Of a DNA stretch of 64,000 nucleotides, positions 2-48,546 are shown piece after piece. The notes below the pieces were generated by a model. It searched no databases. It was given only the letters and a program-made list of their open reading frames with translations, and had not been told where the DNA came from. The stretch comes from Candidatus Latescibacterota bacterium. GTDB taxonomy: Bacteria > Latescibacterota > UBA2968 > UBA8231. The position numbers and the translations under genes were made by a program. The stretch spans positions 2,176,001-2,240,000 of the forward strand of contig CBDFJF010000002.1 in the NCBI GenBank assembly GCA_965248265.1. The letters run 5' to 3'. The number at the start of each line of letters is the position of its first letter. Positions within the stretch are counted from its first letter, which is position 1.

Positions 2-2101
2 AACTCCTACACCTCCCTCGATCTGTTCAGCGGCAATTTTCTGGCCGGCAACCTGACGGCTGGCCAGAGCAGCGCCCCGGTGACGGCCATCGCCGTCATT
101 CTCAGCGACGACTCGCCGCATGACGGAGTCGGTGGCGCCGCCCTGTTCAGCCACGACGTCCGTATCACGACCAGGAACTTCGAGACGGACACCGAGCAGC
201 TATGGACCTTGGAAGAGGTGGTGCGCCCCGGCACCGAGTGGCCGGCCGTGTTCGGCGGGTTCGTGCGTCCCGGGTTCATCGCCGCAGATGGCGACGAGCG
301 CATCGTCCTCAACTACGACTTCACCGATCCCGCCTTCCAGCTCGTGCGCGAAGACGGTTCCGAGCTCGATGCCACCAACATCATCGAGGTCGAGTTCGAC
401 TATGTCCTGGCCAACGACTTCAAAGTTGAACTGTGGTCGAACCGTCAGACCGGTAAGAACGCGGTTCCGTCGCCACCTCTCACGAGCGACGTCATCGACG
501 TGGAGGCGCCGTCCTTGCTGCTCGTTCGCCGGGCCGAGGACAACGTCACGAATATCTCCAACATCCAGCGGCTCAAGTTCGAGTACGGTCTGCCCACGGC
601 CAACATGGTGGCCGGCTTCACGATCGAGGGCACGGATGTCTGGGGAATCGATTTCTACGGGGAATGGGACCGCAACTTCCGCTACTTCCAGTATCCCAAC
701 GCCGCCCTCTTCAACGCCAACGAAGCCCACGAGATCTCTCGTCGGGAGGCGGATGCGCGCTACTTCACGGTCTCCAAGCAGCAGTTTCCATTCTTCGCTT
801 ACGGCGAGGCCTACGGCATCGACGAAGACTACGGCACCAGCGCCTTCATCGTCGATGGAGACGGCAACACGCAGTACGACCGGCCCACCCTTTGGAGCTA
901 CGAGTTCGTGGACGACAACGATGATCAGGACGGCACTGCGGACTGGGTGCGCCGTGGTTCGGGCGGCGTAGATCGAAACGTATTCCCCGGTTGGGATGAA
1001 AACAACGACGCCATCTCCGATTTCAACCAGAACGACAACAGGTTTGTGCCCAACGAACTGCCAGACTACGAAGAGCCGTTTCTCCGCTACGACGTAGACC
1101 GGCCCGAGTTTCTGTTTGGAATCGACCTGAATAACAACGGCTGGATCGACCGCTTCGAAGACGACGAGCTGCCGGACTATCCCTACAAGGCGGACCGCGA
1201 GGGGTACAACGCCTTCGTCGGCATGCACCTGTCGCCGGAGACACGGCTGATGGTGGGTCGCACGGACGAACACATGCTGTCCGACGACCGGGAGAACACG
1301 ACCACCTACGCGCTGTTCACCTTCGACAAGAGCTATGCGGGAATCGGTCGGGTGCGCGTCTTCGACATGGTTCGACGGGCCTCTGACACGATCCCTGATG
1401 ATCGCCGGGAGATCTCGCCGTTTCGCAGTGCGCCGGCCCAGCCCATCTTAGAGGACTTTCTGCGGGCGCAGGACACCTGGATCAACACCGCCTGGCTGGG
1501 GCTCGAGTACATGGCGATTCCGAAGCTGAAGGTCGAGGGCGTGCTGAAGCACGAGTATTTCAACCAGACGCAGGATGAGCCGCGGGATCTGACAAGCCGA
1601 CGCATGGCTGGGGCACCGAGCCTGTTCGGCTTGGTGAACAAACTCGAATACAACATCAGCCTGGGGTCCCTGATGCTGCGGCCGCGGCTGAAGAGCGAGT
1701 ACCTGCGGCAGGATGCGTTCGTGCAGGAAGAGGACGACCACAAGCAGTGGACGGGTCTGGCCATGCTCCTGGCCCAATTCCCCGTCCTCACCGAAAGCTC
1801 GCTGACGGCGGGCATCGAGCTGGCCCAGTTCGCCGACAGAATGAAAGACGAAGACGAGCTGGTGGAGACGGGAAAGGTCGGCGCTACGGGGGATGAGCGC
1901 TCCGTCAACGTCGCCGTCCAGGTGGCCAACCGATCGTCCTATCTGGGCTATCGGTTGACGACCCACATCGGCCTGCGGCTGGCGCGGGTGCTTGTGGAGC
2001 AGGTGCAGGAGCGTGAAGCTGCTCCCGGAGAGTTCGAGAAGGTGAGCCAAGGCAGGACCGAAACCACCAGTTTCATCACCGTCTTCGCCGGGTTGGAATA
2101 G
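2..2101 (+). CDS. Large envelope protein, paralog A (5'-partial); putative outer-membrane beta-barrel with Asp-rich Ca-binding-like core
   Basis: Frame is open from position 2 (NSYTSLDLFSGNFLAG... aligns with the NNNGALDTWEGNPLKG of the next ORF). Motifs DDNDDQDG, VFPGWDENNDAISDFNQN, DLNNNGWID; ends TVFAGLE. Confidence 0.85.
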   Translation, partial: NSYTSLDLFSGNFLAGNLTAGQSSAPVTAIAVILSDDSPHDGVGGAALFSHDVRITTRNFETDTEQLWTLEEVVRPGTEWPAVFGGFVRPGFIAADGDERIVLNYDFTDPAFQLVREDGSELDATNIIEVEFDYVLANDFKVELWSNRQTGKNAVPSPPLTSDVIDVEAPSLLLVRRAEDNVTNISNIQRLKFEYGLPTANMVAGFTIEGTDVWGIDFYGEWDRNFRYFQYPNAALFNANEAHEISRREADARYFTVSKQQFPFFAYGEAYGIDEDYGTSAFIVDGDGNTQYDRPTLWSYEFVDDNDDQDGTADWVRRGSGGVDRNVFPGWDENNDAISDFNQNDNRFVPNELPDYEEPFLRYDVDRPEFLFGIDLNNNGWIDRFEDDELPDYPYKADREGYNAFVGMHLSPETRLMVGRTDEHMLSDDRENTTTYALFTFDKSYAGIGRVRVFDMVRRASDTIPDDRREISPFRSAPAQPILEDFLRAQDTWINTAWLGLEYMAIPKLKVEGVLKHEYFNQTQDEPRDLTSRRMAGAPSLFGLVNKLEYNISLGSLMLRPRLKSEYLRQDAFVQEEDDHKQWTGLAMLLAQFPVLTESSLTAGIELAQFADRMKDEDELVETGKVGATGDERSVNVAVQVANRSSYLGYRLTTHIGLRLARVLVEQVQEREAAPGEFEKVSQGRTETTSFITVFAGLE

Positions 2102-2102
2102 C

Positions 2103-5090
2103 ATGCCGCGACTCACACCCCCCCGACTCCCCGTTGCTCTGGCCGGCCTCGCCCTCTGGGCGAGCACCTCTGTCATGGCGCAGGACTACGGCAGTCGCCT
2201 CGGAACCCGGCTGGGCGAGGAGGTGTTCTACAGCACCTCCGGCGTCCCCATCTACACCCACGCCCTCGACCCGACCGTACACCGCTGGTACGTGCCTGCG
2301 ACGATGTTCGCCGAACTCGGCCGCAGCCAGTGGGAATACACGAACTTTGCCCGCCCTCGCGACCGCTACCGGCGCTACACCGATCGAGACCTAGCGGGTG
2401 CCTACTTCTACGATGTCTACGGGAATCTCACCACCAGGGGATGGCTCGTCTACGACTGGCGCCAGAGCCAGCCGCAGATCTCGGAAAGCTCGTCGATTAC
2501 CCAGGCGGGCGGCCGCTATGACACATGGTTCAACCGCCTGGTCATCAGCTCTGACCGCAAAGGCGAGTACGCTGTTTCCGTCCTCATCGGCGACGAGGTA
2601 TCGGCCCTGCTCACCCCCATGACCTTCCGCAAGGCCGGCTTCAACGGGGTCGTCACCAGTCTCGAGGCTGGCCCCTACCGGACTACAGGAGTGTTCTCCC
2701 GGATCAGCGATCCCTGGCTTGGGGTCGGGACCTCGACCACCCAGAACATGACCAATCTGATGGGCGGCAGAGTCGAAGTGGATGTCACCGACGCCCTCAC
2801 CTTGGGCTTCAATCTGGTCAACAGCCACAACAACAACGGCGCTCTCGACACATGGGAGGGGAATCCGCTCAAGGGCTACCTCGCGCCCGAGCAGCTCTCG
2901 TCGGCTATCTCCATGCTGGTCGTCAGGCTCTCCGATGACTCCCCCGAAGACGGCGGGGGCGCCGTTCTGGTGAGCGACGATATCGAAATCACTACGACGC
3001 TCATGCGGCGGGTGGCCGTGGGCGACACCTTCACCACCGTGCCCAGAGACACCGTCATCGTCGGCAGCAGCATCGGCTTCGAGCCTATCGCAGGACTGCA
3101 GTTCCTCACCGGGGAGGTGGGAATTGGGGAAGGCAAGCTGGTGGAGGGGTTCCGCACGGCCGATGGCTCTGACACCATCGTGCTGAACTACCTCCTCGAC
3201 GTGCCGCCCGTCGTAACCGGTGATGAGCACCGGGCTCAGCTGGAGCCGTTGACGCTGCGCTCGCTTCTGCAGACGCAGGTCGGGCTGGACAGCGATGAGG
3301 TGCAAGACGCCCTGCTGGCGATCAGGAATCTGCGGATGCGTCTCATCCTGGCCAACGACTACCGGGTGGAGGTCACCTCGGACAGGCAGACGGACAAGTC
3401 GGGCGTACCGCAGTTTCGCCCGGTTACACGGGCCGAGGGGAACATCAAGAATCGCCTCAACCAGCGCGAGATCGTGTTCGATTACGGCCTGCCTACGGCG
3501 AATACCATAATCGGTCTGACCGCCGAAGTTCGGGACTTCCACGGCATCGACCTCTACGGCGAGGTCAACGTCAACACCCAGTACCGGAAATACCCGGGAC
3601 TCGGCCGCGAGCGACACCGCGCTATCTCGGGGATTCGCGGCGACCGGAACGCCCTCGGCTGGATGGTCAACATGTCCTGGAGGGGTGATGGCCCGTTTTC
3701 GCTCTTCGCCGAGGGCTTCGGCATGGACGACGAATACACCACGAGCGTATTGCCTCAGGACAGGTCCGGGTTGCCCGACTACTCTCCGGACGCCACCAGC
3801 CTGCGCTACGAATGGGTCGATGACAACGACGACAACGACCGTCAGCCGGATTGGCACCGCGTTCGCGAGGGATCCTTCGTGCCCCGACGCGGATTCGCCG
3901 AGAGTTCGATCGATGGCCGGGGAGTCCCGGATCCGGATGTGTTTCCCGGCTACGACGAGAACCTCGATTTCATCTCCGACTTCAACCAGAACAGCACGCC
4001 GGAGCGCCCCAACTTCTTCCCCGATTACGACGAGCCGTTCCTGCGCTACAGCTCCGACCGGCCGGAATTCCTGTTCGGCATCGATCTGAACAACAACGGC
4101 TGGATCGAGCGTTTCGAAAATGATGACGAGCCGGACTACCCCTACAGGAGGGACCATTTCGGCTACAACCTCTACGGCAGAGCCGAGCTCGCCCGCAGCA
4201 AGCTCACCCTGGGGCAACTGCAACAGGATGAGGGGAAATCCCGGCGCCGGAATCACACGAGATATGGCATGTTCACCTACGAGGGCGACTGGCCGGCGCT
4301 GGGACGGCTGCGCGTGTTCGACATGCTCAAGAGCGCGAAGGACACGATCGCCGACGATCTGATCCAGTGGGTGATGGAGCCCGTCGAGGAGGGACGGCCC
4401 ACCGGTTCATCGGGCCAGATGGAGCCGATCGCAGACCCCCTGGCGGCGGAGGATACCTGGATCAACACCTTTTACACCGACTGGGAGTACGAGTCCCCGC
4501 TGAACTGGAAGACCTTTCACCGCTTCAAGTGGGAGACCTGGAAGCAGCGGGACGCGGATGTGCGGATTACCCTCGACGACGCCGGCGACACCCTGTCCGT
4601 GTTCGATCCCCTCGGCCCGGAAGGGCGCCTCGGGCGCGAGGATTCCGGCTTTTTCGGCTTCATCAACAAGGTCGAGTACGTCCACCGGTTGGGAAACTTC
4701 ACGCTGTCGCCGAGATTCAAGAGCGAGTTTCTCCGCCGGACCCCGTTCACCGTGACGAGAGAAAAGCAGCGCTCCTGGGATGGCATCGGCTTCTTCCTCG
4801 TCGAGTTCCCCATCCTCAAGAGGACTCGCATCAAAGCGGGTCTCGAGCAACGCTTCTTCTACAACCTGAAAGGGGACGAAGGAGATCTCGCGATGGGTGA
4901 CATATCGGGAGATTTCCGCGGCACGGCAGCGGCTATCCAGCTGACAAACGTGAGCGACTACCTCGGATACGCCCTGACGACCCAGGTCGGCTTCCGTATC
5001 GACCGCCGCTCCCTGGAGGTCATCGACGACGATCCGGAATCGACGACGGCTGGTCTGGGGTACATGACCGTCTTCGCCGGACTGCGCTAG
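2103..5090 (+). CDS. Large envelope protein, paralog B, with signal peptide; putative outer-membrane beta-barrel
   Basis: 995 aa; signal peptide ending ...SVMA|QD; colinear similarity to the upstream ORF; amphipathic strand-like C-terminal segments; ends TVFAGLR. ATG lies 1 nt after the upstream stop. Confidence 0.85.
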   Translation: MPRLTPPRLPVALAGLALWASTSVMAQDYGSRLGTRLGEEVFYSTSGVPIYTHALDPTVHRWYVPATMFAELGRSQWEYTNFARPRDRYRRYTDRDLAGAYFYDVYGNLTTRGWLVYDWRQSQPQISESSSITQAGGRYDTWFNRLVISSDRKGEYAVSVLIGDEVSALLTPMTFRKAGFNGVVTSLEAGPYRTTGVFSRISDPWLGVGTSTTQNMTNLMGGRVEVDVTDALTLGFNLVNSHNNNGALDTWEGNPLKGYLAPEQLSSAISMLVVRLSDDSPEDGGGAVLVSDDIEITTTLMRRVAVGDTFTTVPRDTVIVGSSIGFEPIAGLQFLTGEVGIGEGKLVEGFRTADGSDTIVLNYLLDVPPVVTGDEHRAQLEPLTLRSLLQTQVGLDSDEVQDALLAIRNLRMRLILANDYRVEVTSDRQTDKSGVPQFRPVTRAEGNIKNRLNQREIVFDYGLPTANTIIGLTAEVRDFHGIDLYGEVNVNTQYRKYPGLGRERHRAISGIRGDRNALGWMVNMSWRGDGPFSLFAEGFGMDDEYTTSVLPQDRSGLPDYSPDATSLRYEWVDDNDDNDRQPDWHRVREGSFVPRRGFAESSIDGRGVPDPDVFPGYDENLDFISDFNQNSTPERPNFFPDYDEPFLRYSSDRPEFLFGIDLNNNGWIERFENDDEPDYPYRRDHFGYNLYGRAELARSKLTLGQLQQDEGKSRRRNHTRYGMFTYEGDWPALGRLRVFDMLKSAKDTIADDLIQWVMEPVEEGRPTGSSGQMEPIADPLAAEDTWINTFYTDWEYESPLNWKTFHRFKWETWKQRDADVRITLDDAGDTLSVFDPLGPEGRLGREDSGFFGFINKVEYVHRLGNFTLSPRFKSEFLRRTPFTVTREKQRSWDGIGFFLVEFPILKRTRIKAGLEQRFFYNLKGDEGDLAMGDISGDFRGTAAAIQLTNVSDYLGYALTTQVGFRIDRRSLEVIDDDPESTTAGLGYMTVFAGLR

Positions 5091-5099
5091 CAGAGCGAC

Positions 5100-6989
5100 A
5101 TGCACCCGGCCGCGCTGCGTTGGACAATGATCGGCGCGGTCGTTTTGTCGAGCTGTACGGGCGGTGAGGAGGGACCCGCCGAGGGTCGGGCATTTTTCGT
5201 CGACGTCGCCGCAGAGAGCGGCATCGAGTTCGTCCACACCGCCGGCGGCCAGGGAGACTACTACCTCATCGAGACCATGGGTGCCGGGGGGGCGTTCTTC
5301 GACTACGACAGTGACGGGCTTCTCGACATCTATCTCGTGGAAGGATTCTCCATCGGTATCGGCACCGATTTCAGCCCCCTGAACCTCCTCTCGGAGACCT
5401 CTACCCGCTATCTCATCAGGCATCCCATGGAGTACCGCCGCCCTCCTCGTCTGGACGGGGAAGTCGACAGTCTCGCGTATCGGGTTCGTCAGAGCGCCGA
5501 GCCGTTCGTCAGAAACCGCCTCTATCGCAACAATGGGGAACGGGCAGAGGGAACATTCTCAGACAGGACCTCGGAGGCCAGAGTGGGAGATACGGGGTAC
5601 GGTATGGGGTGTGCAGTGGGAGACTACGATAACGACGGCGATGCGGATCTGTATGTCGTCAACTACGGACCGAACACGCTGTACCGGAATGAAGCAGACG
5701 GCAGTTTTGTCGACGTCACGGAGCACATGGGGGTCGGCGATCCGAGCTGGAGCGCGGGCGCGGCCTTCTTCGATTATGATAGCGACGGTCGGCTCGACCT
5801 CTACGTCGTCAACTACCTCGACTTCCACGTCGGCAATAACCTGATCTGCGGCGGCAACGAGGAGGCGCAGGAATCGCCGGCTGGCACCTTGCTGAGAATG
5901 CGCAAGGACCGCCGCTCGTACTGCAGCCCGAAAGGGTACAACGGCGCTGCTGATGTCCTCTACCACAACACCGGAAGTCGCTTCGAGAGCACGTTCGAGA
6001 ACGTGACGCGAGAAATGGGCATCTTCAGCCCGTACGGAAAGGGTCTCGGCGTCGTGACGTCCGATTTCGACGGGGACGGGGACACGGACGTCTACGTGGC
6101 TAACGACGGCGTGAGAAATTTTCTCTACCGGAACGAGGGCGGCGAGCAGTTCGCGGACATCGCAGTGGCGGCGGGAGCGGCGTACAACCGGGATGGTCGT
6201 GCGGAGGCGGGCATGGGCGTGGACTGGGGCGATTTCGATGGAGATGCCGATTTCGATCTCTTCGTCACCAATTACTCGAGACAGACCAACACACTCTATC
6301 GAAACGATGGTGCAGCCGTGTTCAACGACGTCACGGATGTCGTCCAGCTGTCAGAGAGCAGCCACAACCCCCTCGGCTTTGGGACGTTCTTCTTCGAGGC
6401 CGACAACGACGGCGATGTGGATCTGTTCGTCGCCAACGGCCACGTCCAGGACAAGGTTCATTTTTTCGCCGGAAACGAGGGCATCACGTATCCACAGCCG
6501 AACCAGCTTTTCGCCAACAGCGATGGTCGTGAATATGTGGAAGTGTCCAGTCAGAGCGGTCCCGGGCTGGAGCCTGTCCTCGTCTCCCGCGGGAGCGCCT
6601 TTGGAGATTACGACAACGACGGCGATCTCGACATTCTCGTGACCAACTGCGACGGCCCGGCACAGCTGCTGCGCAACGACTTGTCAGCGAAGAGGAACTG
6701 GCTCTCGGTTCGCCTGATCGGCAGAGACGTGAACCGAGATGCCGTTGGATCCAGAATCGCGGTCACCTGCGATGGCGCTACCCAGGTTCGGGAGGTGAAG
6801 ACGAGTGGCAGCTACGCCTCAGCCAGCGATATTCGGCAGCATTTCGGGCTCGGTGACTGCGGTGCGGTCCAGAGTCTGGAGATCATCTGGCACGACGGTT
6901 CGCTGCAACTGGTGGACGGGAAGGAGGTGTTGGTGAATCAGTTTCTGACGATCGAACAGGAAGATTCTCGCGGGGCCTCCCGTCAATAG
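5100..6989 (+). CDS. CRTAC1-family FG-GAP/VCBS repeat lipoprotein with C-terminal ASPIC/UnbV domain
   Basis: Lipobox LSSC; repeated DYDxDGxxDLYV motifs; C-terminal REVKTSGSYASASDIRQHFGLG...WHDG. Confidence 0.92.
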   Translation: MHPAALRWTMIGAVVLSSCTGGEEGPAEGRAFFVDVAAESGIEFVHTAGGQGDYYLIETMGAGGAFFDYDSDGLLDIYLVEGFSIGIGTDFSPLNLLSETSTRYLIRHPMEYRRPPRLDGEVDSLAYRVRQSAEPFVRNRLYRNNGERAEGTFSDRTSEARVGDTGYGMGCAVGDYDNDGDADLYVVNYGPNTLYRNEADGSFVDVTEHMGVGDPSWSAGAAFFDYDSDGRLDLYVVNYLDFHVGNNLICGGNEEAQESPAGTLLRMRKDRRSYCSPKGYNGAADVLYHNTGSRFESTFENVTREMGIFSPYGKGLGVVTSDFDGDGDTDVYVANDGVRNFLYRNEGGEQFADIAVAAGAAYNRDGRAEAGMGVDWGDFDGDADFDLFVTNYSRQTNTLYRNDGAAVFNDVTDVVQLSESSHNPLGFGTFFFEADNDGDVDLFVANGHVQDKVHFFAGNEGITYPQPNQLFANSDGREYVEVSSQSGPGLEPVLVSRGSAFGDYDNDGDLDILVTNCDGPAQLLRNDLSAKRNWLSVRLIGRDVNRDAVGSRIAVTCDGATQVREVKTSGSYASASDIRQHFGLGDCGAVQSLEIIWHDGSLQLVDGKEVLVNQFLTIEQEDSRGASRQ

Positions 6990-9013
6990 GCCAGTGAGAC
7001 GACCTTGAGAGCGGTGTTCGTCCCCTCGTCGGTAGCGACGTCGAGGCGCAGGATGTATACCCCCGGTACGGCGAGTGTGCCGGCGCCGTCTGTGCCGTCC
7101 CAGGTTGCGCTCTGACGTCCGCTCGTCGAAGGCCCGTCAAAGACGACGGCCACCTTTCTGCCCGCCAGGTCGTACAGACTTAGTGTGACGGGTACGGCAC
7201 CGGACAAGTTGACGAGGTCGAAGGAGATCTCGATGGCGTCGTTGACACGGTCGCCGTTGGGGGTGGCCACCGGAGTCGACAGCTGGAAGGCTTGTATCGA
7301 GCTCTGGCCGAGATCGGCCAGTCCCACTGAGAGGGTGTTGCTGTCCACCAATTCGTCGGCGTCGCCGGCGGCGATGCGCTGACGCGGCTCCCCAAGTCGG
7401 GAGCTGTCGAAGACCCTGCCCCGAAAGACGGTTCCGAACTTGAACACCTCGGTCTGGAACACGATTTCGATCAACTCGTTCGTGCGCTGCAGGTCGATGT
7501 GGGGGAGATTGACGACGAAGCTGGTCGGACCCGGCTCCCAACCCCACTCCGACTCATCCAGGTACACCTCGTTTATCCGCACCGAATCCACGCTGGTGAC
7601 CTCGGTCGCCGTCTCGATCTCGATGCTGTCGAACCCGAGGTCCCTGCGGAGCAGCTGCGGCAGCACCAGGTACCGGAACTGGGTCAGGGTTCGCGCCGCC
7701 ACTACGGGTGGAGCGATCTCCGCCACCACCTGGCTGGCGATCGGCGGGCTCGATACGCGGAACTCGAGATAGTCGAGGCGCCGTCTCGAGCGGGTGTTCG
7801 AGGACGTGAGGTCGACGTCGAACTGCACGTATTGGCGTGGTCCATCCGCCGCCAGCGGCGCTTCGCGGGCATCGAAATCGAGCGGGGTCGTCCAGAACTG
7901 CCAGTTCTTGCTGTCCGGCGCGATGCCTGCCCGTTCACCGGCCTCGAGTCTCGCGTAGCTGGCGCGGGTCAGGGGTTTGCCGTCGGTGTCGAGGCCCGAG
8001 CGCTCCTCTCCTCTGAAGGTGTAGCGCGAGTATTTGTTGGGATCCGGGGTGTTGCCGCTGCGGGTGATGAGGTCCACCGTGGCGTCGGCCTCGCGCACCC
8101 CGCTCCACACGAGATCACCCAGGGTGGAGGGCTGTCCCAGATCGAGGATGTTCGAGCGGTAGCTCGCCCGCGGTACGTACCCATCTCCGTAGATCTCGAA
8201 CTCGGCGATTTCCCAGTCTCCTGTCAGGGCGATCAGGAAGATATTCTGAGTCGGGAAGCTGCTCACTTCCAGATCGAGGGTGGATATCCGGTTCTCGGTC
8301 GAGGAGAACACGATCCCCTCTCTCTCCCAGTCGACGAAGTCGGTCTCGTTCCGCGCGTATTGTAGGCTTCTGCGGGCTGTACCCTCAGGGGGTCCTATCG
8401 GAAGACCCAGACCTCGCAGGCCGTCCTTGCGTTCATCGCCGTCGTTGACCGCAATGGTGATCTCCTGCACGAAGCGCTGGTGCGCGTATCTCGGTGTGGG
8501 ATACATCTTGATGCGGGTAATGGGAAGGGGACCGCCGAGATCGATCGCGAGAATCTTGTACTGGCCATACGAGAACCCCGAAGAGCCGCCGTTGAACGCC
8601 GTCGTCGGGGCCTCGTCGATCATCAAATCGAGACCTGGTTCGTCACTGGAGGAGAAGCCGTCCGTCGACTTGATGGAACCGCCCCTGGCCCTGACGAAGG
8701 GAGTCAGATTGACGTTGGGGTCCAGCCTCTCGGGGGCTATGAAATCCGGGGCGAGTTCGACGAGACGACTGCTGCCGAAGAGCGCGTCGTCCGTCCCCGT
8801 CCACGGCAGCTGGACGAATCTGGAGGCGTCCCCGACCTCCGGTGCCGGCAGCTCGTCCCAGTTCAACCGCATGATCTCCAGCGGTCCGTCGATATCCGGC
8901 GCAGGGAGGCTCTCGCCACCGATTCTGTAGATGGTGACCGCGCCGCTATCCGATATCGACGACATGGCGAGTGCTAAGGCGAGTAGCCTGAACTGCAGTC
9001 GAGGCTTATCCAT
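6983..9013 (-). CDS. Secreted protein with discoidin(F5/8)-like segment and C-terminal FlgD Ig-like domain
   Basis: Signal peptide; IDLGG...ITRIKMYP and WEIAEFEIYG; C-terminal TPNGDRVND...YDLAGRKV...WDGTD...PGVYILRL...SLAY. Confidence 0.88.
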   Translation of the reverse strand: MDKPRLQFRLLALALAMSSISDSGAVTIYRIGGESLPAPDIDGPLEIMRLNWDELPAPEVGDASRFVQLPWTGTDDALFGSSRLVELAPDFIAPERLDPNVNLTPFVRARGGSIKSTDGFSSSDEPGLDLMIDEAPTTAFNGGSSGFSYGQYKILAIDLGGPLPITRIKMYPTPRYAHQRFVQEITIAVNDGDERKDGLRGLGLPIGPPEGTARRSLQYARNETDFVDWEREGIVFSSTENRISTLDLEVSSFPTQNIFLIALTGDWEIAEFEIYGDGYVPRASYRSNILDLGQPSTLGDLVWSGVREADATVDLITRSGNTPDPNKYSRYTFRGEERSGLDTDGKPLTRASYARLEAGERAGIAPDSKNWQFWTTPLDFDAREAPLAADGPRQYVQFDVDLTSSNTRSRRRLDYLEFRVSSPPIASQVVAEIAPPVVAARTLTQFRYLVLPQLLRRDLGFDSIEIETATEVTSVDSVRINEVYLDESEWGWEPGPTSFVVNLPHIDLQRTNELIEIVFQTEVFKFGTVFRGRVFDSSRLGEPRQRIAAGDADELVDSNTLSVGLADLGQSSIQAFQLSTPVATPNGDRVNDAIEISFDLVNLSGAVPVTLSLYDLAGRKVAVVFDGPSTSGRQSATWDGTDGAGTLAVPGVYILRLDVATDEGTNTALKVVSLAY

Positions 9014-9085: not shown

Positions 9086-10000
9086 CTACTTCCTGAAGGA
9101 CGCCTTGATGTTCGCCCAGCTGTCCTCTTCGACGGCCGTCGGGTCGATGATGTCCGTGTCTATTGGCAGCAGGAGATAGTCAGACAGGAAGTCGGCATTG
9201 CAGCAGGCCTGGCCGGGGACGCCCAGATTCCAGCGCGCATTATTTCTGTCCTCGCCTTCATCGGTGCCGTCAGTGTCGTCCACGCTCACGTTCAGGCCGA
9301 TGATCTCGCCTTCCATCATCGGGTGCTCGACGCCGGCGTTGGGATCATCATGGTTGTAGTCGTCAAACACCGTGAACATGAACTCGCCACGGTAATTAAA
9401 CTCCTCACTGTTTCCCGGCGTACCCTCGTATTCGTAGACCCCGTCCCCCCACGGCAAGTCATCGTGCCAGTCCGACGCGGACATCCAGGCCCAGAGCCAC
9501 GTTTCCTTTCTCAAGCCGTCGTCGAAATAGACCTGGTAGATCTGGGCGTGGCGGTTCCGGTTCCGTAGGTTTTCCTCATCCGTGCCACCTTCGATGTTCC
9601 AGAAGGTGCCGCCCGAATGGTCGGCGTCGATGGCAGGCGAGATATTGTCCCATTGCGTCCAGTCGTTGTCGAACCGCTCGTAGGCCCAGTGGAGCTTGCT
9701 CGAGCCCTGCACGAAGCTCGGTATGAAGCGGAACGAAAGGTCGGATGCGTCGAGGTCTGCCGCCTTCGTTTCATTTCCGTCGAACATGAACGAAGAGTTC
9801 ACATTGTAGTTCTCGTGCGTAAACCAGAATTCCTCCGGGACCCTGTCCCAGTCGGACAGGTCTGCATCACGCACCGGCACTTGGTTCGCCGGCCACTGCC
9901 AGATTATGCCCCGATAACCTTCCGGAGCATGCCCAACCACAGGGGCGCTGAGGGCGCAGATCAGAGCACAGACACCCAGGCCTGCTACGATCTTCTTCAT
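9086..10000 (-). CDS. Secreted acidic protein, possible CBM9/DOMON-like fold, with C-terminal PTAVExxSWxxIK tail
   Basis: MKK signal peptide; RBS AAGGAGG; PVRDADLSDW and IIGLNVSVDDTD resemble CBM9-like domains; tail PTAVEEDSWANIKASFRK. Confidence 0.8.
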   Translation of the reverse strand: MKKIVAGLGVCALICALSAPVVGHAPEGYRGIIWQWPANQVPVRDADLSDWDRVPEEFWFTHENYNVNSSFMFDGNETKAADLDASDLSFRFIPSFVQGSSKLHWAYERFDNDWTQWDNISPAIDADHSGGTFWNIEGGTDEENLRNRNRHAQIYQVYFDDGLRKETWLWAWMSASDWHDDLPWGDGVYEYEGTPGNSEEFNYRGEFMFTVFDDYNHDDPNAGVEHPMMEGEIIGLNVSVDDTDGTDEGEDRNNARWNLGVPGQACCNADFLSDYLLLPIDTDIIDPTAVEEDSWANIKASFRK

Positions 10001-10182: not shown

Positions 10183-10289
10183 TAACTACCTACCGAAAAG
10201 TTGTGCGTGAAAAATCGCGGCCTGCTCAACTGGGCCAAATAACCCAAATTGCACGAACCAAACCGAGGAGAGCCTGTAAGAGGTCCCCC

Positions 10290-12905
10290 ATGAGGTGGTT
10301 CGGATACAACATGCTGGTCGTTTCGACTCTCCTGTGCGCCGTTTCCGGCGCCCAGGCCCAGAAGGGTCACAGGATCAGAGCGAACGACGTCGTGATCGAG
10401 GGAAGACGTCACTTCGAGAACTGGGTGTCGGCCGCCGCCACCGTCGAGGTCGGCGTGGATGGCGTCCGTCCGCGGCACCTGCGAAGGCACACGAACGCCG
10501 TCCTCGAAATCGTGGAGGCCTTGCGCCAGCGGCCACCGAAGCACCTGAGGAACACGCCGCCGGAGCAGATCGAGCTGATCGACGCGGTGCAGGCCGGCTC
10601 GAACCGGGAGGATGTGGTCAACGTCTTCGACGGTGACATGAAAACCTACTGGGAGCCCGAGCCCCCGTCGTCAGACGAGGTCAATCTGGCCAGCGAGTGG
10701 TGGTTCACGGTGGATCTGGGACGGGTCGTGTTCGCCAACCGGATCGTCCTGCGCTTCGTCCATCCCAGGCAGGGAGATCCCTTTCTCCTGTTCGACGTGC
10801 TCACCTCGGATGGCCAGAAGCCGCCCTCCGCGATCGCCGGCGAGAACATCGAGTTCCTGCCGGTGATCGAGACAATCGAGCCGAACAGGACCCGGCGGCG
10901 CTTCGAAGTGGATCTGTCCTACGCCGGCGAGGACGCGCGAGAGACCGTCATCAGGTTCGTCCAGGTCGTCGTCCGGGGCAGCAATCTGGACCGCGGTACT
11001 GAGGTGGGCGAACAGGAGTACGGTCTGCTGGATGCCGGGGAACAGGGAGTGGTGGAGTATACCAAGCGCCTCAGCGACGCGAGGGAGTCGGCAGTGCCCG
11101 AGCAGGTCTACTGGGAGCTGGAGCCCGAGCGACGGGGCAGCATCCGCTACTTCCGCCGCGAACGCCCCCGGCTTGCAGAGCTCGAAGTGTGGGGAGATGG
11201 CGACGAGATCCTGGGCGGCACGCTGTTCCGCGGTGGGGCGATCGAGGGAGAGAAATTGGAAAATGTCGGCACCCTCCTCGACGACGATATGCTCACGAGC
11301 CTCTTCGTGGATACCGATGGTCCCGTCGGGAGTCAGGATGAGGTCGTGGTCGATCTGGGTTCATCCTACTGGATCGACAGTCAGCGAATGGTCGTGTCTT
11401 TTCGGCCGAACGAGCATGCTTCCAGTTTCTTCAAGTACGAGCTGGATTTCTCAGACGGTCGCCGGCATGCAGACGGCAGCCCCGTGTGGACAGTGGTGAA
11501 GCGCATCGAGCGGGAGCATATCGGCCATTTCTTAGGCCGCGTCCCGGCGAGCAGCATGATCGTCGATCGGCACGATTTCGATCCCGTCAAAGCCCGTTTC
11601 TTCCGGCTCCTGTGGGACGTCGAGCCGCGTAAGATTGGGAACCACGTCTATCTGGCGGAGATGCAGCTGTTCGGCTCTGGCTACCAACCCGAAGTCAGGC
11701 TGGAGTCTGACAACATCGAGATGCCGGGCAGTCAGAATCTCACCGAGATATCGTGGGAAGCCGACACGCCTCCCGGTACGCAGGTGGTGCTGCAGACGAA
11801 GACGGGAAACACCGTCCTCTCTGATACGCTCTATTACACCGATGACGGTGAGCTGCTGGGCAGAGGGGAGGCTGGGTCGAAGAAGTACTACAGCCGGGCT
11901 TGGAGGAGCAGCCAGGGCGAGAAGAAGCTCCTTCTCGAGGATGGACCGGATTGGTCGCCTCTGAGCGAGCGCTACGAGGATTCCTCCGGGAGCAAGATCA
12001 CCTCGCCGGCGCCTCGCAGAATGGTCAAGGTCCGTGCGACGCTGCTCTCCGACGACCCTCAAACCGCCGCCACGCTGCGCTCGATCCGGTTGAGGTTTGC
12101 CGATCCCATAGCGCGTCGGCTGCTGGGCGAAGTCATGCCGGCCAGAGTCGAGGCCCTGGGAGTCGAGCGCTCCTTTTCGCTGTATGTGAAGGTGGACACA
12201 CTGGAGCAGCGGTTCGACGAGCTCCTGGTGCGGGCTCCCGCGGGCATGGTGCTGGGAGAGGGAGATGATGTCGAGGAGCAGGTACACTTGTTTTCCGGTC
12301 TGGCCGCGGCAGACGAGCTGCAGCAAGCCGGCGATCTGCAGGTCCTGGGCTATGGCGACAGTCTCCACGTAAAATTTCCCCTCCTAGAATCCAGCGTAGA
12401 GGTCTTGCGGCTGGATTTTCCGGCGACGCTGTATTCCAGCGGCGGCCGTCTGGAGGCTTCCCTGCGGAACTCGGACTCGGAATTCTGGCAGCAAGTCGAT
12501 GTGGGCGATGCCACCAGCGAGATCGCCAGCAACACGCTGATAGTGGTCGCTCAGCCCGAGAGCAAGCAACTGTTCCGGGAACTGAATATCTCGCCGCGGG
12601 TCGCCTCTCCCAACGGCGATGGCATCAACGACGAGATCGTCGCCGAGTTTACCGTCGTCCTCTTAGGAGTGAGCGAGGCCGTTGAGATGGAGATCTACGA
12701 TCTGAGCGGTCGTCTCGTTCGTCGCTTGACAGCGCAGCGCGAGGCAAGCGCTGGCCGCTATCGGATCGACTGGGATGGCCTCGACGAGTCGGGCAAGCTG
12801 GCCCCGCCGGGGTTGTACGCGCTGCGGCTGAGCCTCGACGCCGACACCGAGGGCGCCGGGATCGATGAAAAGCACGCGGTGCGTACGATCGCACTGGCGT
12901 ATTGA
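10290..12905 (+). CDS. Secreted protein with discoidin-like domains and C-terminal FlgD Ig-like domain
   Basis: Likely ATG at 10290 (AAGAGG upstream, signal peptide follows); FTVDLG, LAELEVWG, LAEMQLFG; SPNGDGIND...YDLSGRLVR...WDGLD...PGLY...ALAY. Paralog of 6983-9013. Confidence 0.88.
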   Translation: MRWFGYNMLVVSTLLCAVSGAQAQKGHRIRANDVVIEGRRHFENWVSAAATVEVGVDGVRPRHLRRHTNAVLEIVEALRQRPPKHLRNTPPEQIELIDAVQAGSNREDVVNVFDGDMKTYWEPEPPSSDEVNLASEWWFTVDLGRVVFANRIVLRFVHPRQGDPFLLFDVLTSDGQKPPSAIAGENIEFLPVIETIEPNRTRRRFEVDLSYAGEDARETVIRFVQVVVRGSNLDRGTEVGEQEYGLLDAGEQGVVEYTKRLSDARESAVPEQVYWELEPERRGSIRYFRRERPRLAELEVWGDGDEILGGTLFRGGAIEGEKLENVGTLLDDDMLTSLFVDTDGPVGSQDEVVVDLGSSYWIDSQRMVVSFRPNEHASSFFKYELDFSDGRRHADGSPVWTVVKRIEREHIGHFLGRVPASSMIVDRHDFDPVKARFFRLLWDVEPRKIGNHVYLAEMQLFGSGYQPEVRLESDNIEMPGSQNLTEISWEADTPPGTQVVLQTKTGNTVLSDTLYYTDDGELLGRGEAGSKKYYSRAWRSSQGEKKLLLEDGPDWSPLSERYEDSSGSKITSPAPRRMVKVRATLLSDDPQTAATLRSIRLRFADPIARRLLGEVMPARVEALGVERSFSLYVKVDTLEQRFDELLVRAPAGMVLGEGDDVEEQVHLFSGLAAADELQQAGDLQVLGYGDSLHVKFPLLESSVEVLRLDFPATLYSSGGRLEASLRNSDSEFWQQVDVGDATSEIASNTLIVVAQPESKQLFRELNISPRVASPNGDGINDEIVAEFTVVLLGVSEAVEMEIYDLSGRLVRRLTAQREASAGRYRIDWDGLDESGKLAPPGLYALRLSLDADTEGAGIDEKHAVRTIALAY

Positions 12906-12970: not shown

Positions 12971-14188
12971 CTACTCCAGGCCGATGGAGCCGTCGGGTTT
13001 GATGATGACGGGTCGGTCAAAGTCCTTTGGTGGATATGTGGCAGCAGCTTCTTCGTTCAGGTCGATGCCCAATCCCGGGCCCTCGGGCAACTCCATGTAG
13101 CCGTTGGCGATCTTCGGGAGAGGGGAGAAGAGCTCCTGGTTGAACGAAGAGGTGACGTCGTCGTTCACCTCCTGGATGAGGAAGTTGGGAACGGAGGCAT
13201 CGATCTGAGCACACGCGCAGAGCCCGACGGGGCTGCAGGCGTGGTGCGGGGCCAGTGAGATGTTCGAGAGTTCGGCAAACGCGGCCCGCTTCACGGTCTC
13301 CAGGATGCCGCCACAGGCGGTCGGTTCGAGCTGGATGATGTCGACGGCCCGCTTTTCGATGACGTCCTTGAACAGGTCGCGATGAACGACGCGTTCGCCA
13401 CCGGCGATCGGGATGCTCGTCTGACCTTTGACCTCGACGAGTTGATCGGGATTTTCGGTCAGGGCAGGCTCTTCGAGGAAGTAGGGATGGAAAGGTTCGA
13501 TGCCTTTCGCGAGTCGAATCGCATCGGCCGGGCTGAAGCTGCGCCCGTGGAAGTCGAGACAGATGTTGATGTCGGGTCCGACTGCCTCGCGAACCAGCCG
13601 CACGCGTTCGATGGATTCCTCGTATTCGCGGATGGGCGATTTTTCGACTTCCGTCCGCGTGACCCGCGGTTGATCCGAGAGGAGGTCGATGGCCTGCGGC
13701 CCGAACTTGAGTCCTGTCCATCCCTTCTCGACCAAAAGCTTCGCCTGCTCGTGGATCGGCTTTCCCTGCATCTGGGGCCAACGGGACCAGACGTTGCCGC
13801 TGGCGTAGACTCTGATCCGGTCTCTGACCGGACCGCCGAGCATCTTGTAGATGGGGAGCCCGCACGCTTTCCCCGTGATGTCCCAGAGTGCCTGCTCGAT
13901 GGCGCTGAGGGCCGACAACTCTCCCGTCCCGAGGGGATACCGCATCCCCCGGTAGATGGCGTTCCAGTTGTGGACAACACGCGTAGGATCCTGGCCGATG
14001 AGCCAGCGACGGAACTTCCGAACACAGCCCTCGATGATGTCCTCCAGGCTGTGGAAGGCCTCGCCGATTCCGTGGATGCCGTCGTCCGTTTCGATTTTGA
14101 CGATGGCGTGGTTACCGGCGTTCCCCGGGCCGAAGTTGACCGTATGGGGCTGGTTGATGAGGAAGAGCCTGACGTCAGTTATCTTCAT
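12971..14188 (-). CDS. Mandelate racemase/muconate lactonizing enzyme family, galactonate dehydratase-like
   Basis: MKITDV start; ETDDGIHGIGE, SAIEQALWDITGK, LDFHGR, FLEEP, IAGGER, PNFLIQE, PEGPGLG. Confidence 0.92.
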   Translation of the reverse strand: MKITDVRLFLINQPHTVNFGPGNAGNHAIVKIETDDGIHGIGEAFHSLEDIIEGCVRKFRRWLIGQDPTRVVHNWNAIYRGMRYPLGTGELSALSAIEQALWDITGKACGLPIYKMLGGPVRDRIRVYASGNVWSRWPQMQGKPIHEQAKLLVEKGWTGLKFGPQAIDLLSDQPRVTRTEVEKSPIREYEESIERVRLVREAVGPDINICLDFHGRSFSPADAIRLAKGIEPFHPYFLEEPALTENPDQLVEVKGQTSIPIAGGERVVHRDLFKDVIEKRAVDIIQLEPTACGGILETVKRAAFAELSNISLAPHHACSPVGLCACAQIDASVPNFLIQEVNDDVTSSFNQELFSPLPKIANGYMELPEGPGLGIDLNEEAAATYPPKDFDRPVIIKPDGSIGLE

Positions 14189-14258
14189 GGGAGCTTGTAT
14201 TATCTGGCCTCTCGCGAAGGAGGACAAGGGCGGCTTTCCGGTATAGTGCCGCGCGGCA

Positions 14259-15221
14259 CTAGTCAGCACTCTGCTCGATGCGCAGCAGCGCCTGGTGGAT
14301 GCGGTCGGCCTCGACGCGGATCTCGACGCCGGCGCGCTCCTCCTGCAGAAGCATGGCCGCGCGCGAATCGCGATCGCCCCAGCCGCGTTCGAGCGCTTGC
14401 GTGAGCTCGTCGAGGGCGAGATCCGCCATCGGGGTCGGTACCTCTAGCTCGCGCGCCAGTTCGATGGCCAGTGTCACATCCTTGTGCGCCAGGCGCAGAG
14501 CGAATCTCGGTGGCTCGAAAATGCCGGGTAGGAACTGGTTCACGAGCAGATCGAAGGTCCGCGCGCGTCCGGCCACCCCCTCCCGTATCGCCTCCCACAG
14601 CTCCAGCGGTTCGACGCCGGCTTTGACGCCGAGCGTGAACACCTCTGACAGGACCCGGTTGAGGGCGTAGTGCGAACAGTTGTGCACCAGCTTGGCGACC
14701 GTGGCGGCGCCGATCGGCCCGACAAACCGAGGCCTGTCGCCGATCACTTCGAGAAGCGGCCTGTAGTGGCTGAAAACGGACTCCTCACCGCTCACCCAGA
14801 TGGCGAGCGTGCCCGCAGCGGCACCGTGCGGCCCGCCACTCACCGGCGCATCCAGCAAGTGGACGCCTCGTCGGGCGAAGACCCCGTGGATGCGGCGCAC
14901 GACGGTAGGCGAATTCGTCGATAGATCGAACAGCACGCCACCCGCTTTCATCCCCGCAGTCATTTCATTGACAAGACCGTTCTCGCCCAGGGCGACGGCT
15001 TCCACTTCAGCTGGTCCTGGCAGTGAAGTGAACACGACCTGAGCAGCCCTGGCTACCCCGGCCGGTGACTCACCCCAGACGGCGCCCGCCTCCAAATGAG
15101 GATCGGCTGCAGCCCGGGACACATCGTGCACGACGAGGTGGTACCCCGCTCTCTGGAGATTGGCGGCCATCTGCCCGCCCATCGTCCCGAGGCCGATGAA
15201 TCCGACTCGCTCCTCCGCCAC
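14259..15221 (-). CDS. NAD(P)-dependent oxidoreductase, 3-hydroxyisobutyrate dehydrogenase family
   Basis: GFIGLGTMG, DAPVSGG, KLVHN, LAHKDV; GTG start at 15221 just after the upstream stop. Confidence 0.92.
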   Translation of the reverse strand: MAEERVGFIGLGTMGGQMAANLQRAGYHLVVHDVSRAAADPHLEAGAVWGESPAGVARAAQVVFTSLPGPAEVEAVALGENGLVNEMTAGMKAGGVLFDLSTNSPTVVRRIHGVFARRGVHLLDAPVSGGPHGAAAGTLAIWVSGEESVFSHYRPLLEVIGDRPRFVGPIGAATVAKLVHNCSHYALNRVLSEVFTLGVKAGVEPLELWEAIREGVAGRARTFDLLVNQFLPGIFEPPRFALRLAHKDVTLAIELARELEVPTPMADLALDELTQALERGWGDRDSRAAMLLQEERAGVEIRVEADRIHQALLRIEQSAD

Positions 15222-15222
15222 G

Positions 15223-15546
15223 TCAGGCCTGCTCGGCGAAGACGTCGACGGCGACACCGGCGGCGGACATCCCCGAGGGCCAGCCCGAATAGAACGCGAG
15301 GTGGGTCATCAATTCGCTCAGCTCGTCCTTCGTGACGCCATTCTCGAGCGCCCGGCCCAGATGTACCCGCAGCTGCTCGGGCCGGTCGAGGGCGACGAGG
15401 GCGGCCACCGTGATCAGACTCCGGTCGCGCTTGGAAAGCTCCGGGCGTTCCCAGACGTCGCCGAAAAGCACATCTTCCGTGAGCTCGATGAGCTTCGGCA
15501 CCACCGGACGAAGGCGCTCGCGACCTGCTGTCGATGTCTTGGCCAT
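15223..15546 (-). CDS. Carboxymuconolactone decarboxylase (CMD) family protein
   Basis: LFGDVWERPELSKRDRSLITVAAL...HLAFYSGWP; GGGAGAG RBS. It is the real 3' part of the 381-aa ORF. Confidence 0.9.
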   Translation of the reverse strand: MAKTSTAGRERLRPVVPKLIELTEDVLFGDVWERPELSKRDRSLITVAALVALDRPEQLRVHLGRALENGVTKDELSELMTHLAFYSGWPSGMSAAGVAVDVFAEQA

Positions 15547-15753
15547 CAGTCTCTCCCGTTTCCAGTTTCGTGAATGATCGTGCGCTGGTTTGCAGCACGA
15601 AAGGAGGCCGCTGGCGCGGCTCCTGTCAACGACGAAGAGCTCGACGATCAGGCTCTGCCCGGTGGCTCCAGCCCCTTGACAAACTACCGGTAAAAAAGTC
15701 CCTTTTCGTCTCTGTCCGTTATCCTTCCTAACCAAACGGAGCGAAACTGTGCA

Positions 15754-16260
15754 ATGAGCTTCCGATCGATTGACCATTTCGGTATCTCGGTGGAGAGCCT
15801 CGACCGCTCGATCCCCTGGTGGACGCGATTTCTCCAGAGCGAGCCGTTCCAGCGCGGCACATGGACGGCGTCCGAGCTGGACGATTACGTCGGCCGGGTA
15901 CTGGCGTATCCCGAATGCGACATGTCGGCCGCGTTTTGGGCCTTGCCGGGGGGATCCGTCCTGGAGCTCATCGAGTACCACAACCCGCCCCCAGGACGCG
16001 TCGACATGGAGACGAACAACGTCGGCAACAGTCACCTGTGCCTGGAGACGGAGGACATGCGAGCTGAATACGAGCGCCTGCGCGATTTCGTGGAATTCCG
16101 CAGCCCGGAGCCAGTCGAAAGTGTGTGGGGGCCTTACAAGGGCACCCTTGTGTGCTACCTGCGAGATCCGGACGGCATCTCGATCGAGCTGGTACAGTTT
16201 CCGAAGATCGGACGGCCCTTCCAGGAATCCAGTCCGTTTTCGAGTCCTTATGTGAGGTAA
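15754..16260 (+). CDS. VOC/glyoxalase family protein
   Basis: IDHFGISV, LELIEY, HLCL, YLRDPDGISIELVQ. Confidence 0.9.
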   Translation: MSFRSIDHFGISVESLDRSIPWWTRFLQSEPFQRGTWTASELDDYVGRVLAYPECDMSAAFWALPGGSVLELIEYHNPPPGRVDMETNNVGNSHLCLETEDMRAEYERLRDFVEFRSPEPVESVWGPYKGTLVCYLRDPDGISIELVQFPKIGRPFQESSPFSSPYVR

Positions 16261-16295
16261 GGGAAACCGGCGTGGCTTCTTGGGATCTGGAGGCG

Positions 16296-21290: not shown

Positions 21291-21341
21291 TGCTTGCGCT
21301 GTGCTCGTCGGGAAGACTCGGGTAGTCGAGCCGGCAGGTCA

Positions 21342-21522
21342 CTTAGGGAAATCTGTCGTGTCCAGACAGACCGCGAACTCGCCCTCTGCGTCGGCGTACA
21401 TCGCTCGGCGGACACGCCGTTGCGATCAGGACCGAGCCATTGCGGCCAGTCAGCTGCCGGCGTGTGCGCAGCACCGAAGAGAATGGCCGCACAAACGGCG
21501 AGAATGGCTCTTTTTTGTACAC
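21342..21522 (-). pseudogene. Remnant of a PQQ-binding-like (BamB-type) beta-propeller gene
   Basis: The minus strand reads KRAILAVCAAILFGAAHTPAADWPQWLGPDRNGVSAE, then in another frame YADAEGEFAVCLD; no intact start or full ORF. Confidence 0.65.
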
Positions 21523-22620: not shown

Positions 22621-22672
22621 GACCTCTGATTGGCGGGAAGTGCCTGCGGTTCAGAGGGAAAGAGATGGTGAA

Positions 22673-48530: not shown

Positions 48531-48546
48531 GGGGCTCAGGTCCTCC

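Follow-up and report, generated by a model that had tools for sequence, protein, structure and literature searches.

We analysed a stretch of 64,000 nucleotides from a Candidatus Latescibacterota bacterium (assembly GCA_965248265.1, contig CBDFJF010000002.1, positions 2,176,001 to 2,240,000 of the forward strand; the whole stretch is called the window below), at the 5' end of which lie two adjacent open reading frames (ORFs), ORF A and ORF B. The predicted fold of B indicates that A and B are very probably outer-membrane beta-barrels of unusual size. The best explanation of the pair is that A and B are the membrane core of a surface module for glycan capture and uptake or for cargo docking, and we give this reading a probability of roughly 0.45. 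The two ORFs and their parts are as follows.

2..2101, forward strand: ORF A, the upstream paralog, a predicted giant barrel of the A type; open at the 5' end of the window, with 699 amino acids (aa) seen.
2103..5090, forward strand: ORF B, the downstream paralog, a predicted giant barrel of the B type; complete, 995 aa.
2103..2180, forward strand: predicted Sec signal peptide of B, residues 1-26, ending in SVMA before QDYG, with the cleavage site placed by eye.
2181..2480, forward strand: conserved N-terminal region of mature B, residues about 27-126, with nearly invariant G34, G47, P57, Y63, N81, G99, Y103 and D104.
3063..3326, forward strand: variable insert of B, residues about 321-408, three helices; its counterpart in A is shorter, and it has many gaps in the family alignment.
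869..1195, forward strand: acidic Asp/Asn-rich core of A, residues about 290-398, with DDNDDQD at residue 304 and the EF-hand-like loop DLNNNGWIDRFE at residues 375-386.
3726..4154, forward strand: acidic core of B, residues 542-684, between the barrel strands 532-541 and 685-696.
4083..4118, forward strand: EF-hand-like loop of 12 residues, DLNNNGWIERFE, B residues 661-672, found as a motif match.

The stop codon TAG of A occupies positions 2099-2101, and the ATG of B follows at 2103 after a single base. In BLASTP, residues 1-698 of A were colinear with residues 243-994 of B, with 280 identities in 782 positions (36%), 48% positives and an E value of 2e-123. That is, the paralogy of A and B is far beyond chance. 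Since the window edge cuts ORF A and the full-length A-type relatives have 927-1014 aa, about 240 N-terminal residues of A are missing. The part that was seen matched the family hidden Markov model built in this study at 719 bits. The first-pass annotation of the window had described two colinear ORFs one nucleotide apart, and the coordinates and the alignment bear this out. Every motif that it had quoted as common to the pair was found in both translations, namely LSDDSP[HE]DG, LAND..VE..S.RQT, F[ED]YGLPTAN, YE.VDDNDD.D, VFPG.DEN.D.ISDFNQN, PDY.EPFLRY..DRPEFLFGIDLNNNGWI.RFE.D..PDYPY, DTWINT, YLGY.LTT and the C-terminal end TVFAGL[ER]. Its further claim, that the core is conserved and the flanks diverge, proved true of the whole family, as described below.

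The AlphaFold2 model of B, which was built with a 121-sequence alignment, had a mean predicted local distance difference test score (pLDDT) of 78.8 and a predicted template modelling score (pTM) of 0.76, and the five models ranged from 72.6 to 78.8 in pLDDT. In this model 396 residues had a pLDDT of 90 or more. The structure was almost all-beta, and after the poorly modelled N-terminal 130 residues it contained about 28-30 long strands of 8-21 residues, as read from the DSSP string. In the same string the strands were interrupted by the helical insert at residues 321-408, by the acidic core at 542-684 and by a small hairpin at 821-834.

The model of B was then compared with the PDB by Foldseek, and 85 matches were obtained at E <= 0.001. 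Among the matches listed, 50 of 50 were outer-membrane beta-barrels. The top matches were the entries of SlpA from Deinococcus radiodurans (8agd_A, E 9.2e-8; 8ae1_A, 2.1e-7; 7zgx_A, 7.1e-7; each with a probability of 1.00), and the next were MtrB, a TonB-dependent transporter, LptD, the type IX translocon SprA, porins and ushers. A comparison with viral models gave 4 matches at E <= 0.001 and was uninformative. For the relative P0029, a separate model in the ESM Atlas had a pTM of 0.71, and its nearest structural neighbours were only unnamed clusters of the same family. The barrel that had been proposed from the letters of the sequence is thus what the monomer model predicts, with SlpA as the top match and SprA among the others.

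The features of the family agree with export to the outer membrane. In all of the 16 members inspected, a Sec-type signal peptide preceded Q-[DE]-Y-G-x-R-L-G, and the chain ended in a conserved hydrophobic strand, [FY]-h-[ST]-h-[FY]-A-[GS]-[LVI], followed by 0-2 residues. Alternating hydrophobic patterns were present in many segments. The motifs DYGxRLG and ALDPTVxRWYxPQELFxEYGRxQW, which belong to the N-terminal region of B, were strongly conserved in the family. From the model and these features we infer an outer-membrane location for A and B.

The acidic core is the most conserved part of these proteins. In an alignment of 441 sequences, the column entropy per 20-residue block was lowest at B641-680 (1.08-1.25 bits, as compared to 1.5-3.3 bits elsewhere), and this block reads PDYDEPFLRY...DLNNNGWIERFENDDEPDYP. 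The core of B contains DDNDDND (residue 573), DENLDFISD (618) and PDYDEPF (640); it carries one EF-hand-like loop and two Asp/Asn runs. The loop of an EF-hand follows the pattern D-x-[DNS]-x-[DNS]-G-x-[ILV]-x-x-x-[DE], and both DLNNNGWIERFE of B (residues 661-672) and DLNNNGWIDRFE of A (residues 375-386) fit this 12-residue pattern in the form given here. Among 424 full-length family sequences, the pattern was present in 226 by a strict definition and in 293 by a loose one. DDNDD.D was found in 309 and PDY[DE]EPF in 276 of the 441 sequences, and D661, N664, N665, F671 and E672 were invariant in the 121-sequence alignment. In the model of B the loop is coil with a three-residue helix at 669-671, its pLDDT is 67-77, and no ions are included. 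The first-pass annotation had spoken of a large calcium-binding insert. The insert is real, in that residues 542-684 lie between barrel strands of the model; the binding of calcium by it is plausible from the motifs.

The searches of sequence databases gave the following results. Neither A nor B had a match in Pfam or in NCBIfam at E <= 1. A sequence search of the PDB with B and a profile search of the PDB with A1, the family profile from the 121-sequence alignment, gave no match, and the PDB searches with the relatives P0306 and P0272 gave nothing usable. With another profile, A2, the sole match was a restriction-enzyme subunit at 14 bits, which we rejected as spurious. That is, no full-length match to a characterised family was found in Pfam, in NCBIfam or by PDB sequence search. 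The earlier statement that A and B match no family of TonB receptors, BamA or porins holds at the level of sequence. The family is not wholly isolated: SlpA barrels are the nearest folds, and distant relatives have local, mostly sub-threshold matches to Pfam SlpA_C.

The family is large. At E <= 0.001, at least 782 family proteins were present in a protein set clustered at 90% (7998 candidates sharing most words were scored), and an exhaustive search gave 938 clusters at 50% identity, 315 of them below 1e-30. All source names of the members were 'hypothetical protein'. The hosts were Latescibacteria/Latescibacterota and Gemmatimonadetes/Gemmatimonadota, with a more distant branch in Ignavibacteriales, and single metagenome-assembled genomes with the family were labelled Handelsmanbacteria, Planctomycetota and Rhizobiaceae. 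In the ESM Atlas the nearest clusters were the family itself, unnamed, and the 30 nearest models were without a Pfam family. The nearest named cluster there was DUF6029 (PF19494), a putative TonB-dependent receptor-like barrel, which shares 159-160 of 256 language-model features with the family. This candidate was set aside, since its score of 0.89 lies below the line of 0.9 and Pfam did not confirm it: no DUF6029 match was found in A, B or 57 relatives scanned. In the literature searched on the outer membrane of Latescibacterota and Gemmatimonadota, on type IX secretion and on polysaccharide utilization loci, subscription journals being outside the search, no description of the family was found.

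In order to compare gene neighbourhoods, genomes were scanned at one per species; at least 609 relatives were obtained among 646 pattern matches, and the best 80 loci were kept. The counts given below over 78 refer to the loci with a family gene in our own gene calls, because two further loci lost it in greedy calling. Among the best 80 loci, the closest relative of the window pair was L029 (contig CAZUXZ010000204.1), which has three family genes and a B protein of 64% identity. This contig carries the label 'uncultured Rhizobiaceae', far from all other family hosts, and it is probably mis-binned.

The pair arrangement was common in these loci. Two family genes were present in 50 of 78 loci, one in 26 and three in 2. 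In a FastTree phylogeny of 135 proteins, the downstream copies formed one group (54 rows, support 100) and the upstream copies another (55 rows, support 99), and the single-gene forms made up a third group beside A (26 rows, support 91). These three groups were recovered by IQ-TREE with 34 rows (support of 99 for A, 100 for B and 96 for the single forms), and the sub-clades were mirrored. In both trees ORF A fell in the A clade and ORF B in the B clade. Within a locus the identity of A with B was 39-46%, as compared to at least 51% among A proteins and at least 44% among B proteins. Several pairs occurred on one chromosome; OZ220478.1, OZ242361.1 and OZ220690.1 each held four of the best 80 loci.

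Because the A and B groups are separate and their sub-clades are mirrored, we conclude that one old duplication gave A and B, and that whole pairs were later duplicated as units. The A-A and B-B matrices of pairwise identity correlated with r = 0.986 over 46 loci. This co-diversification and the spacing of one nucleotide suggest a joint function of A and B, probably in a physical hetero-oligomer. Such a correlation is also expected from the shared history of linked genes and is no proof of contact. Taken comprehensively, the pair is ancient and probably works together, and we consider a complex of A with B somewhat more probable than separate action. The related single-gene forms would be homo-oligomers.

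The genes that follow B in the window, which belong to the module described next, are as follows.

5100..6989, forward strand: FG-GAP/VCBS repeat and ASPIC/UnbV protein, 629 aa; FG-GAP_3 145.6 bits, UnbV_ASPIC 59.8 bits; starts 10 nucleotides after B.
6983..9013, reverse strand: secreted protein of cluster 0 with a C-terminal FlgD-Ig / type IX sorting-like domain; FlgD_ig 30.2 bits, TIGR04183 22.4 against a cut-off of 23.
9086..10000, reverse strand: secreted protein of cluster 3, 304 aa, resembling carbohydrate-binding module family 9 (CBM9) and DOMON; no other small partner gene of the module is as common.
10203..12905, forward strand: second cluster-0 protein, discoidin-like with a C-terminal FlgD-Ig/CHU_C-like domain; FlgD_ig 42.7, F5_F8_type_C 28.4, CHU_C 23, below the cut-off of 27.

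A conserved neighbour of the barrel genes in related loci was a cluster-0 gene (about 600-840 aa). It lay directly upstream of them on the same strand in 67 of the 74 loci with a visible upstream gene. When the C-termini of six of these upstream proteins were tested, the Pfam domain CHU_C, which is a type IX secretion signal domain, was above its cut-off in four, and FlgD_ig was found in four. The consensus of the tail was ...VFTPNGDGxND...WDGRDDxGxLVPPGxY. The N-terminal part had a discoidin-like signature, with a weak F5_F8_type_C match in one member, and a PDB sequence search with the upstream protein gave FlgD Ig domains only. The pairwise identities of this protein correlated with those of the first barrel at r = 0.97 (35 loci, 595 pairs).

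A lipoprotein-like protein with two PPIC rotamase domains, similar to SurA and PpiD, was encoded in 59 of 78 loci. In 10 loci this gene (about 570 aa, with a lipoprotein-like N-terminus) lay between A and B and not downstream of them, according to the ORF coordinates (L019, L022, L024-L027, L031, L032, L042 and L045). Further proteins with type IX-like tails, TPR proteins, FG-GAP/ASPIC proteins and DUF6785/DUF6784 membrane proteins also recurred near the barrels, and the gene cluster of the FG-GAP/ASPIC gene at 5100..6989 was present in 16 of 78 loci. The window itself has two DUF6785 plus DUF6784 genes of about 660 aa, at 35987..37972 and 46614..48617 on the reverse strand (Pfam 272.6 and 423.7 bits), and this family occurred near barrel genes in 15 of 78 loci. 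No mention of DUF6785 was found in the literature searched, which did not extend to subscription journals. The DUF6785/DUF6784 protein may be an inner-membrane partner of the barrel loci.

The cluster-3 proteins (290-340 aa) were encoded in 51 of 78 loci, and in 50 of them the gene lay within three genes of the barrel genes. None of 55 cluster-3 members had a Pfam match, CBM9 included. The AlphaFold2 model of the protein at 9086..10000 was a beta-sandwich with a pLDDT of 78.5. Its best PDB matches were CBM9 modules with bound glucose or cellobiose, namely 7nwo (CBM9 with glucose; E 1.2e-8, TM-score 0.74 by target) and 1i82_A (E 1.5e-6), and these were followed by haem subunits of the DOMON type. 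The likeness to CBM9 is one of predicted fold only. His24, which lies just after the signal peptide, Asp125, Asp127, His128, Asp242 and Asp244 were invariant in this partner, and its weaker fold matches were the haem-binding DOMON subunits of nitrite oxidoreductase and ethylbenzene dehydrogenase. To judge from the modelled fold, this protein may bind a metal or haem instead of a sugar.

The window is also rich in carbohydrate genes, namely GH106, GH2, GH127 and BNR_4 genes, two heparinase II/III genes and sugar oxidoreductases. The region 17445..28411 encodes a GH106-like rhamnosidase with GH2-type sugar-binding domains (1281 aa) and BNR_4, GH127-like and GH2-like proteins, and the heparinase II/III-like genes are located at 43111..45375 and 62975..64000 on the reverse strand, the latter being cut at the window end. 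Apart from these, the four genes at 12971..17369 on the reverse strand lie beyond the module and were unrelated to it in the loci compared; they are of the mandelate racemase/enolase, 3-hydroxyisobutyrate dehydrogenase, carboxymuconolactone decarboxylase and luciferase-like monooxygenase types. The gene at 51818..54601 on the forward strand encodes a 927-aa protein with a spermine/spermidine-synthase-like domain, and in a homologous cluster of related loci the domain is joined to an MFS-like membrane portion.

The mechanism that we propose is as follows. A and B would be Sec-exported outer-membrane beta-barrels of about 28-30 strands each, remote kin of giant barrels of the SlpA type. The N-terminal region of about 100 residues, the variable helical insert and the acidic core of 140 residues, which probably binds calcium, would most likely fill or gate the very wide lumen. 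The genes of A and B would be translationally coupled and their products would most likely act as a hetero-oligomeric unit. The other parts of the module would be the discoidin-like protein with its type-B-like tail, the CBM9-like protein, further proteins with type IX tails and the SurA-like chaperone. We propose that the barrels dock the carbohydrate-binding proteins delivered by type IX secretion at the surface and that captured glycan fragments, the putative substrate, pass through the gated pore. The module would in this way fill the role of SusC/SusD without a TonB plug. As for glycan uptake, we think it possible but somewhat short of an even chance. The most far-reaching form of the proposal is an unrecognised TonB-independent glycan-capture machine in Latescibacterota, Gemmatimonadota and Ignavibacteriales, composed of heteromeric barrels of about 30 strands with a calcium-loaded acidic gate and serving as a multi-copy counterpart of SusC/SusD in phyla from which no SusC/SusD loci are known to have been reported; taken as a whole, it seems rather unlikely.

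Several results weigh against the glycan-capture and docking module. With regard to the barrel itself, the TM-scores to solved barrels were 0.25 or less by query among the Foldseek matches listed, and there was no close structural twin. Because these scores are low (0.25 at best), the predicted barrel would be one of its own kind and no copy of a solved one. The number of strands, like the closure of the barrel and the sidedness of the inserts, was taken from the DSSP string alone and is approximate. In a mean-field coevolution analysis of 438 sequences (Neff 235), the couplings were blocky and driven by gaps, and no ladder of strands could be trusted. The N-terminal region of about 100 residues in mature B was poorly modelled (pLDDT 29-53, and up to 74 over residues about 27-126) and may fold only against a partner or within the lumen, and the acidic core of B was modelled as coil with low confidence (pLDDT 42-68, with a range of 42-86 by ten-residue block). 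As for the complex, a search of proteins of 1743-4975 aa yielded no fusion of A with B, although this counts as weak evidence. No TonB box or plug was seen in A or B; any uptake would be passive, because no energy-coupling element was seen. As for the cargo, NCBIfam TIGR04131, the type B sorting domain, scored 16.7-25.1 bits against a cut-off of 35 in six of six upstream proteins. Finally, the glycoside hydrolases of the window lie 12-23 kb from the pair, and the neighbours in related loci were mixed (TPR, PhyH, DUF6785 and pentapeptide proteins). The hydrolases being distant and the neighbours mixed, it is mainly the discoidin-like and CBM9-like folds that support the link to carbohydrate.

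The main rival explanation is that the barrels serve the upstream type IX cargo solely as anchors or shuttles and transport nothing, that is, giant analogues of PorP/SprF. The position of the cargo gene with its type-B-like tail directly before the barrel gene in 67 of 74 loci and the co-diversification of cargo and barrel (r = 0.97) speak for it. In two reports, type B substrates of Flavobacterium are described as often genetically linked to their cognate PorP/SprF shuttles (PMC12618676), and PorP-like proteins, which like SprF are 14-stranded barrels of the FadL type, as anchoring type B proteins, with sprB adjoining sprF (PMC9143113). However, A and B have about 28-30 predicted strands and three times the length, with no Pfam or NCBIfam match, and anchoring alone does not explain the conserved pair of barrels and the invariant acidic core. 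We regard a pure anchor as an explanation with only a modest chance of being right.

The next explanation is that the barrels are structural scaffolds like SlpA, abundant and plugged, which would give order to the envelope or support a surface layer without serving as channels. SlpA provides the nearest folds, and distant members of the family graze the Pfam model SlpA_C. The authors of the SlpA structure also favour a scaffold over a pore on the basis of lumen inserts with metal sites (PMC9388160). However, A and B are without an SLH domain or a coiled-coil stalk, and a genome contains many diverged copies, every one accompanied by a cargo protein and a CBM9-like protein of its own, which resembles a set of modules specialised for substrates more than a single bulk scaffold. 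A scaffold of this kind is thus less likely than the anchor, and we think it improbable.

An export function, with the barrels as pores for polysaccharide or for the neighbouring secreted proteins and thus as an alternative outer-membrane translocon, is also less likely than the anchor and appears quite improbable. The barrel is in the size class of secretion pores, Foldseek listed LptD, the ushers PapC and FimD, AlgE and SprA (8gl6_A, E 1.9e-5), and some loci have glycosyltransferase/TPR and membrane proteins. However, no genes for polysaccharide synthesis or export (Wza, Wzx or ABC-type) were present among the conserved neighbours, the type IX-like tails of the neighbours imply another translocon, and unrelated barrels matched at least as well as SprA did.

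Finally, the low TM-scores and a coevolution analysis without a usable contact map would fit an artefact, in which A and B would be beta-rich secreted proteins, either soluble or at the surface, but the agreement of the five models, the 396 residues at high pLDDT, the Foldseek probability of 1.00 for several barrels, the 50 of 50 listed matches to membrane barrels, the alternating hydrophobicity, the C-terminal strand and the Atlas model of P0029 make this extremely improbable.

The outer-membrane beta-barrel as a kind is known. As compared to the literature searched, what appears to be new from the sequences is the family itself, its size class outside the tethers of the Deinococcus type, the A/B pairing, the invariant acidic insert and the link with type IX-tailed proteins. 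Barrels of nearly 30 strands are rare among solved structures, and here such barrels are predicted for a large unnamed family without a Pfam or NCBIfam model, the hosts of which belong to abundant, mostly uncultured phyla of soil, sediment and sea. Should the module be a glycan importer, the uptake of substrates by these polysaccharide-degrading phyla would be accounted for, and metagenome annotation would gain a new marker for substrate-utilisation loci. If the barrels anchor type IX cargo, the repertoire of surface attachment would be wider than PorV and PorP. In either case it would be worthwhile to name the family, to build a profile model of it and to solve a structure.

Lastly, we compared A and B with known systems. 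The 26-stranded LptD and MtrB resemble them in being large single-chain barrels that enclose another protein or domain (Foldseek E 1.4e-6 to 2e-5), but the TM-scores were 0.13-0.22, the sequences are not similar, and neither the partners nor the gene context correspond. SprA/Sov, the translocon of type IX secretion, is a 36-stranded barrel of about 2,200-2,400 aa, whereas B has 995 aa, no NCBIfam match and a TM-score by query of 0.15 to 8gl6_A. For BamA and TamA, which are 16-stranded Omp85 proteins with POTRA domains, there was no Pfam match in A or B; TamA was a partial Foldseek match with a TM-score by query of 0.13.

SlpA/OmpM (PF21620, SlpA_C) gave the best Foldseek matches, at a TM-score of only 0.25, and its 28 or 30 strands may compare with the approximate 28-30 read from the DSSP string of the B model. 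The SLH domain and coiled-coil tether are the defining feature of SlpA/OmpM, and SlpA usually occurs in one or two copies. No SLH domain was found by Pfam in A or B, and the model of B has no long helix, its N-terminal 130 residues being short strands and coil. SlpA_C, which is the barrel domain of SlpA, had no Pfam match in A or B at E <= 1. In distant relatives it gave local matches in 9 of 41 and 12 of 16 proteins, and only 1 of the 57 exceeded the gathering score (P0306, 37.7 against 35). These matches spanned about 75-130 of the 656 profile positions, mostly at about 232-305 and in a few cases at 196-335, which corresponds to B residues of about 410-470 (LANDYRVEV...FDYGLPTAN). A precomputed PF21620.6 label was present on 15 of 120 relatives among the matches listed. 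Because the SLH domain and the coiled-coil stalk are absent, A and B are not filed in the SlpA family. In the structural report, SlpA is described as a homotrimer of 30-stranded barrels, the first of that size according to its authors, with lumen inserts stabilised by Asp-based metal sites (PMC9388160). By analogy, these inserts are a useful precedent for the acidic core of A and B. In contrast to the homotrimeric SlpA, A and B are co-evolving pairs with many copies per genome beside type IX-tailed proteins.

PorP/SprF resembles the present system in that the barrel gene adjoins a gene for a protein with a type-B-like tail and in the many cognate pairs per genome. The differences are its 14 strands and its length, about one third of that of A and B (about 930-1000 aa), and neither A nor B matched it in Pfam or NCBIfam.

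The SusC/SusD system of Bacteroidota takes up glycans by means of a large barrel and surface carbohydrate-binding proteins, and SusC has an N-terminal Plug and a 22-stranded TonB_dep_Rec barrel. No Pfam or NCBIfam match to Plug or TonB_dep_Rec was found in A or B, the model of B has more than 22 strands, structures of TonB-dependent transporters were weak Foldseek matches to B (TM-scores 0.10-0.19), and no SusD-like lipoprotein was present among the neighbours in the loci examined. Both systems are multi-copy modules of outer-membrane barrels with carbohydrate-binding proteins, or proteins that resemble them, in genomes rich in glycoside hydrolases. They differ in that the present module has two paralogous barrels and in that its partners are apparently delivered by type IX secretion and not as lipoproteins.

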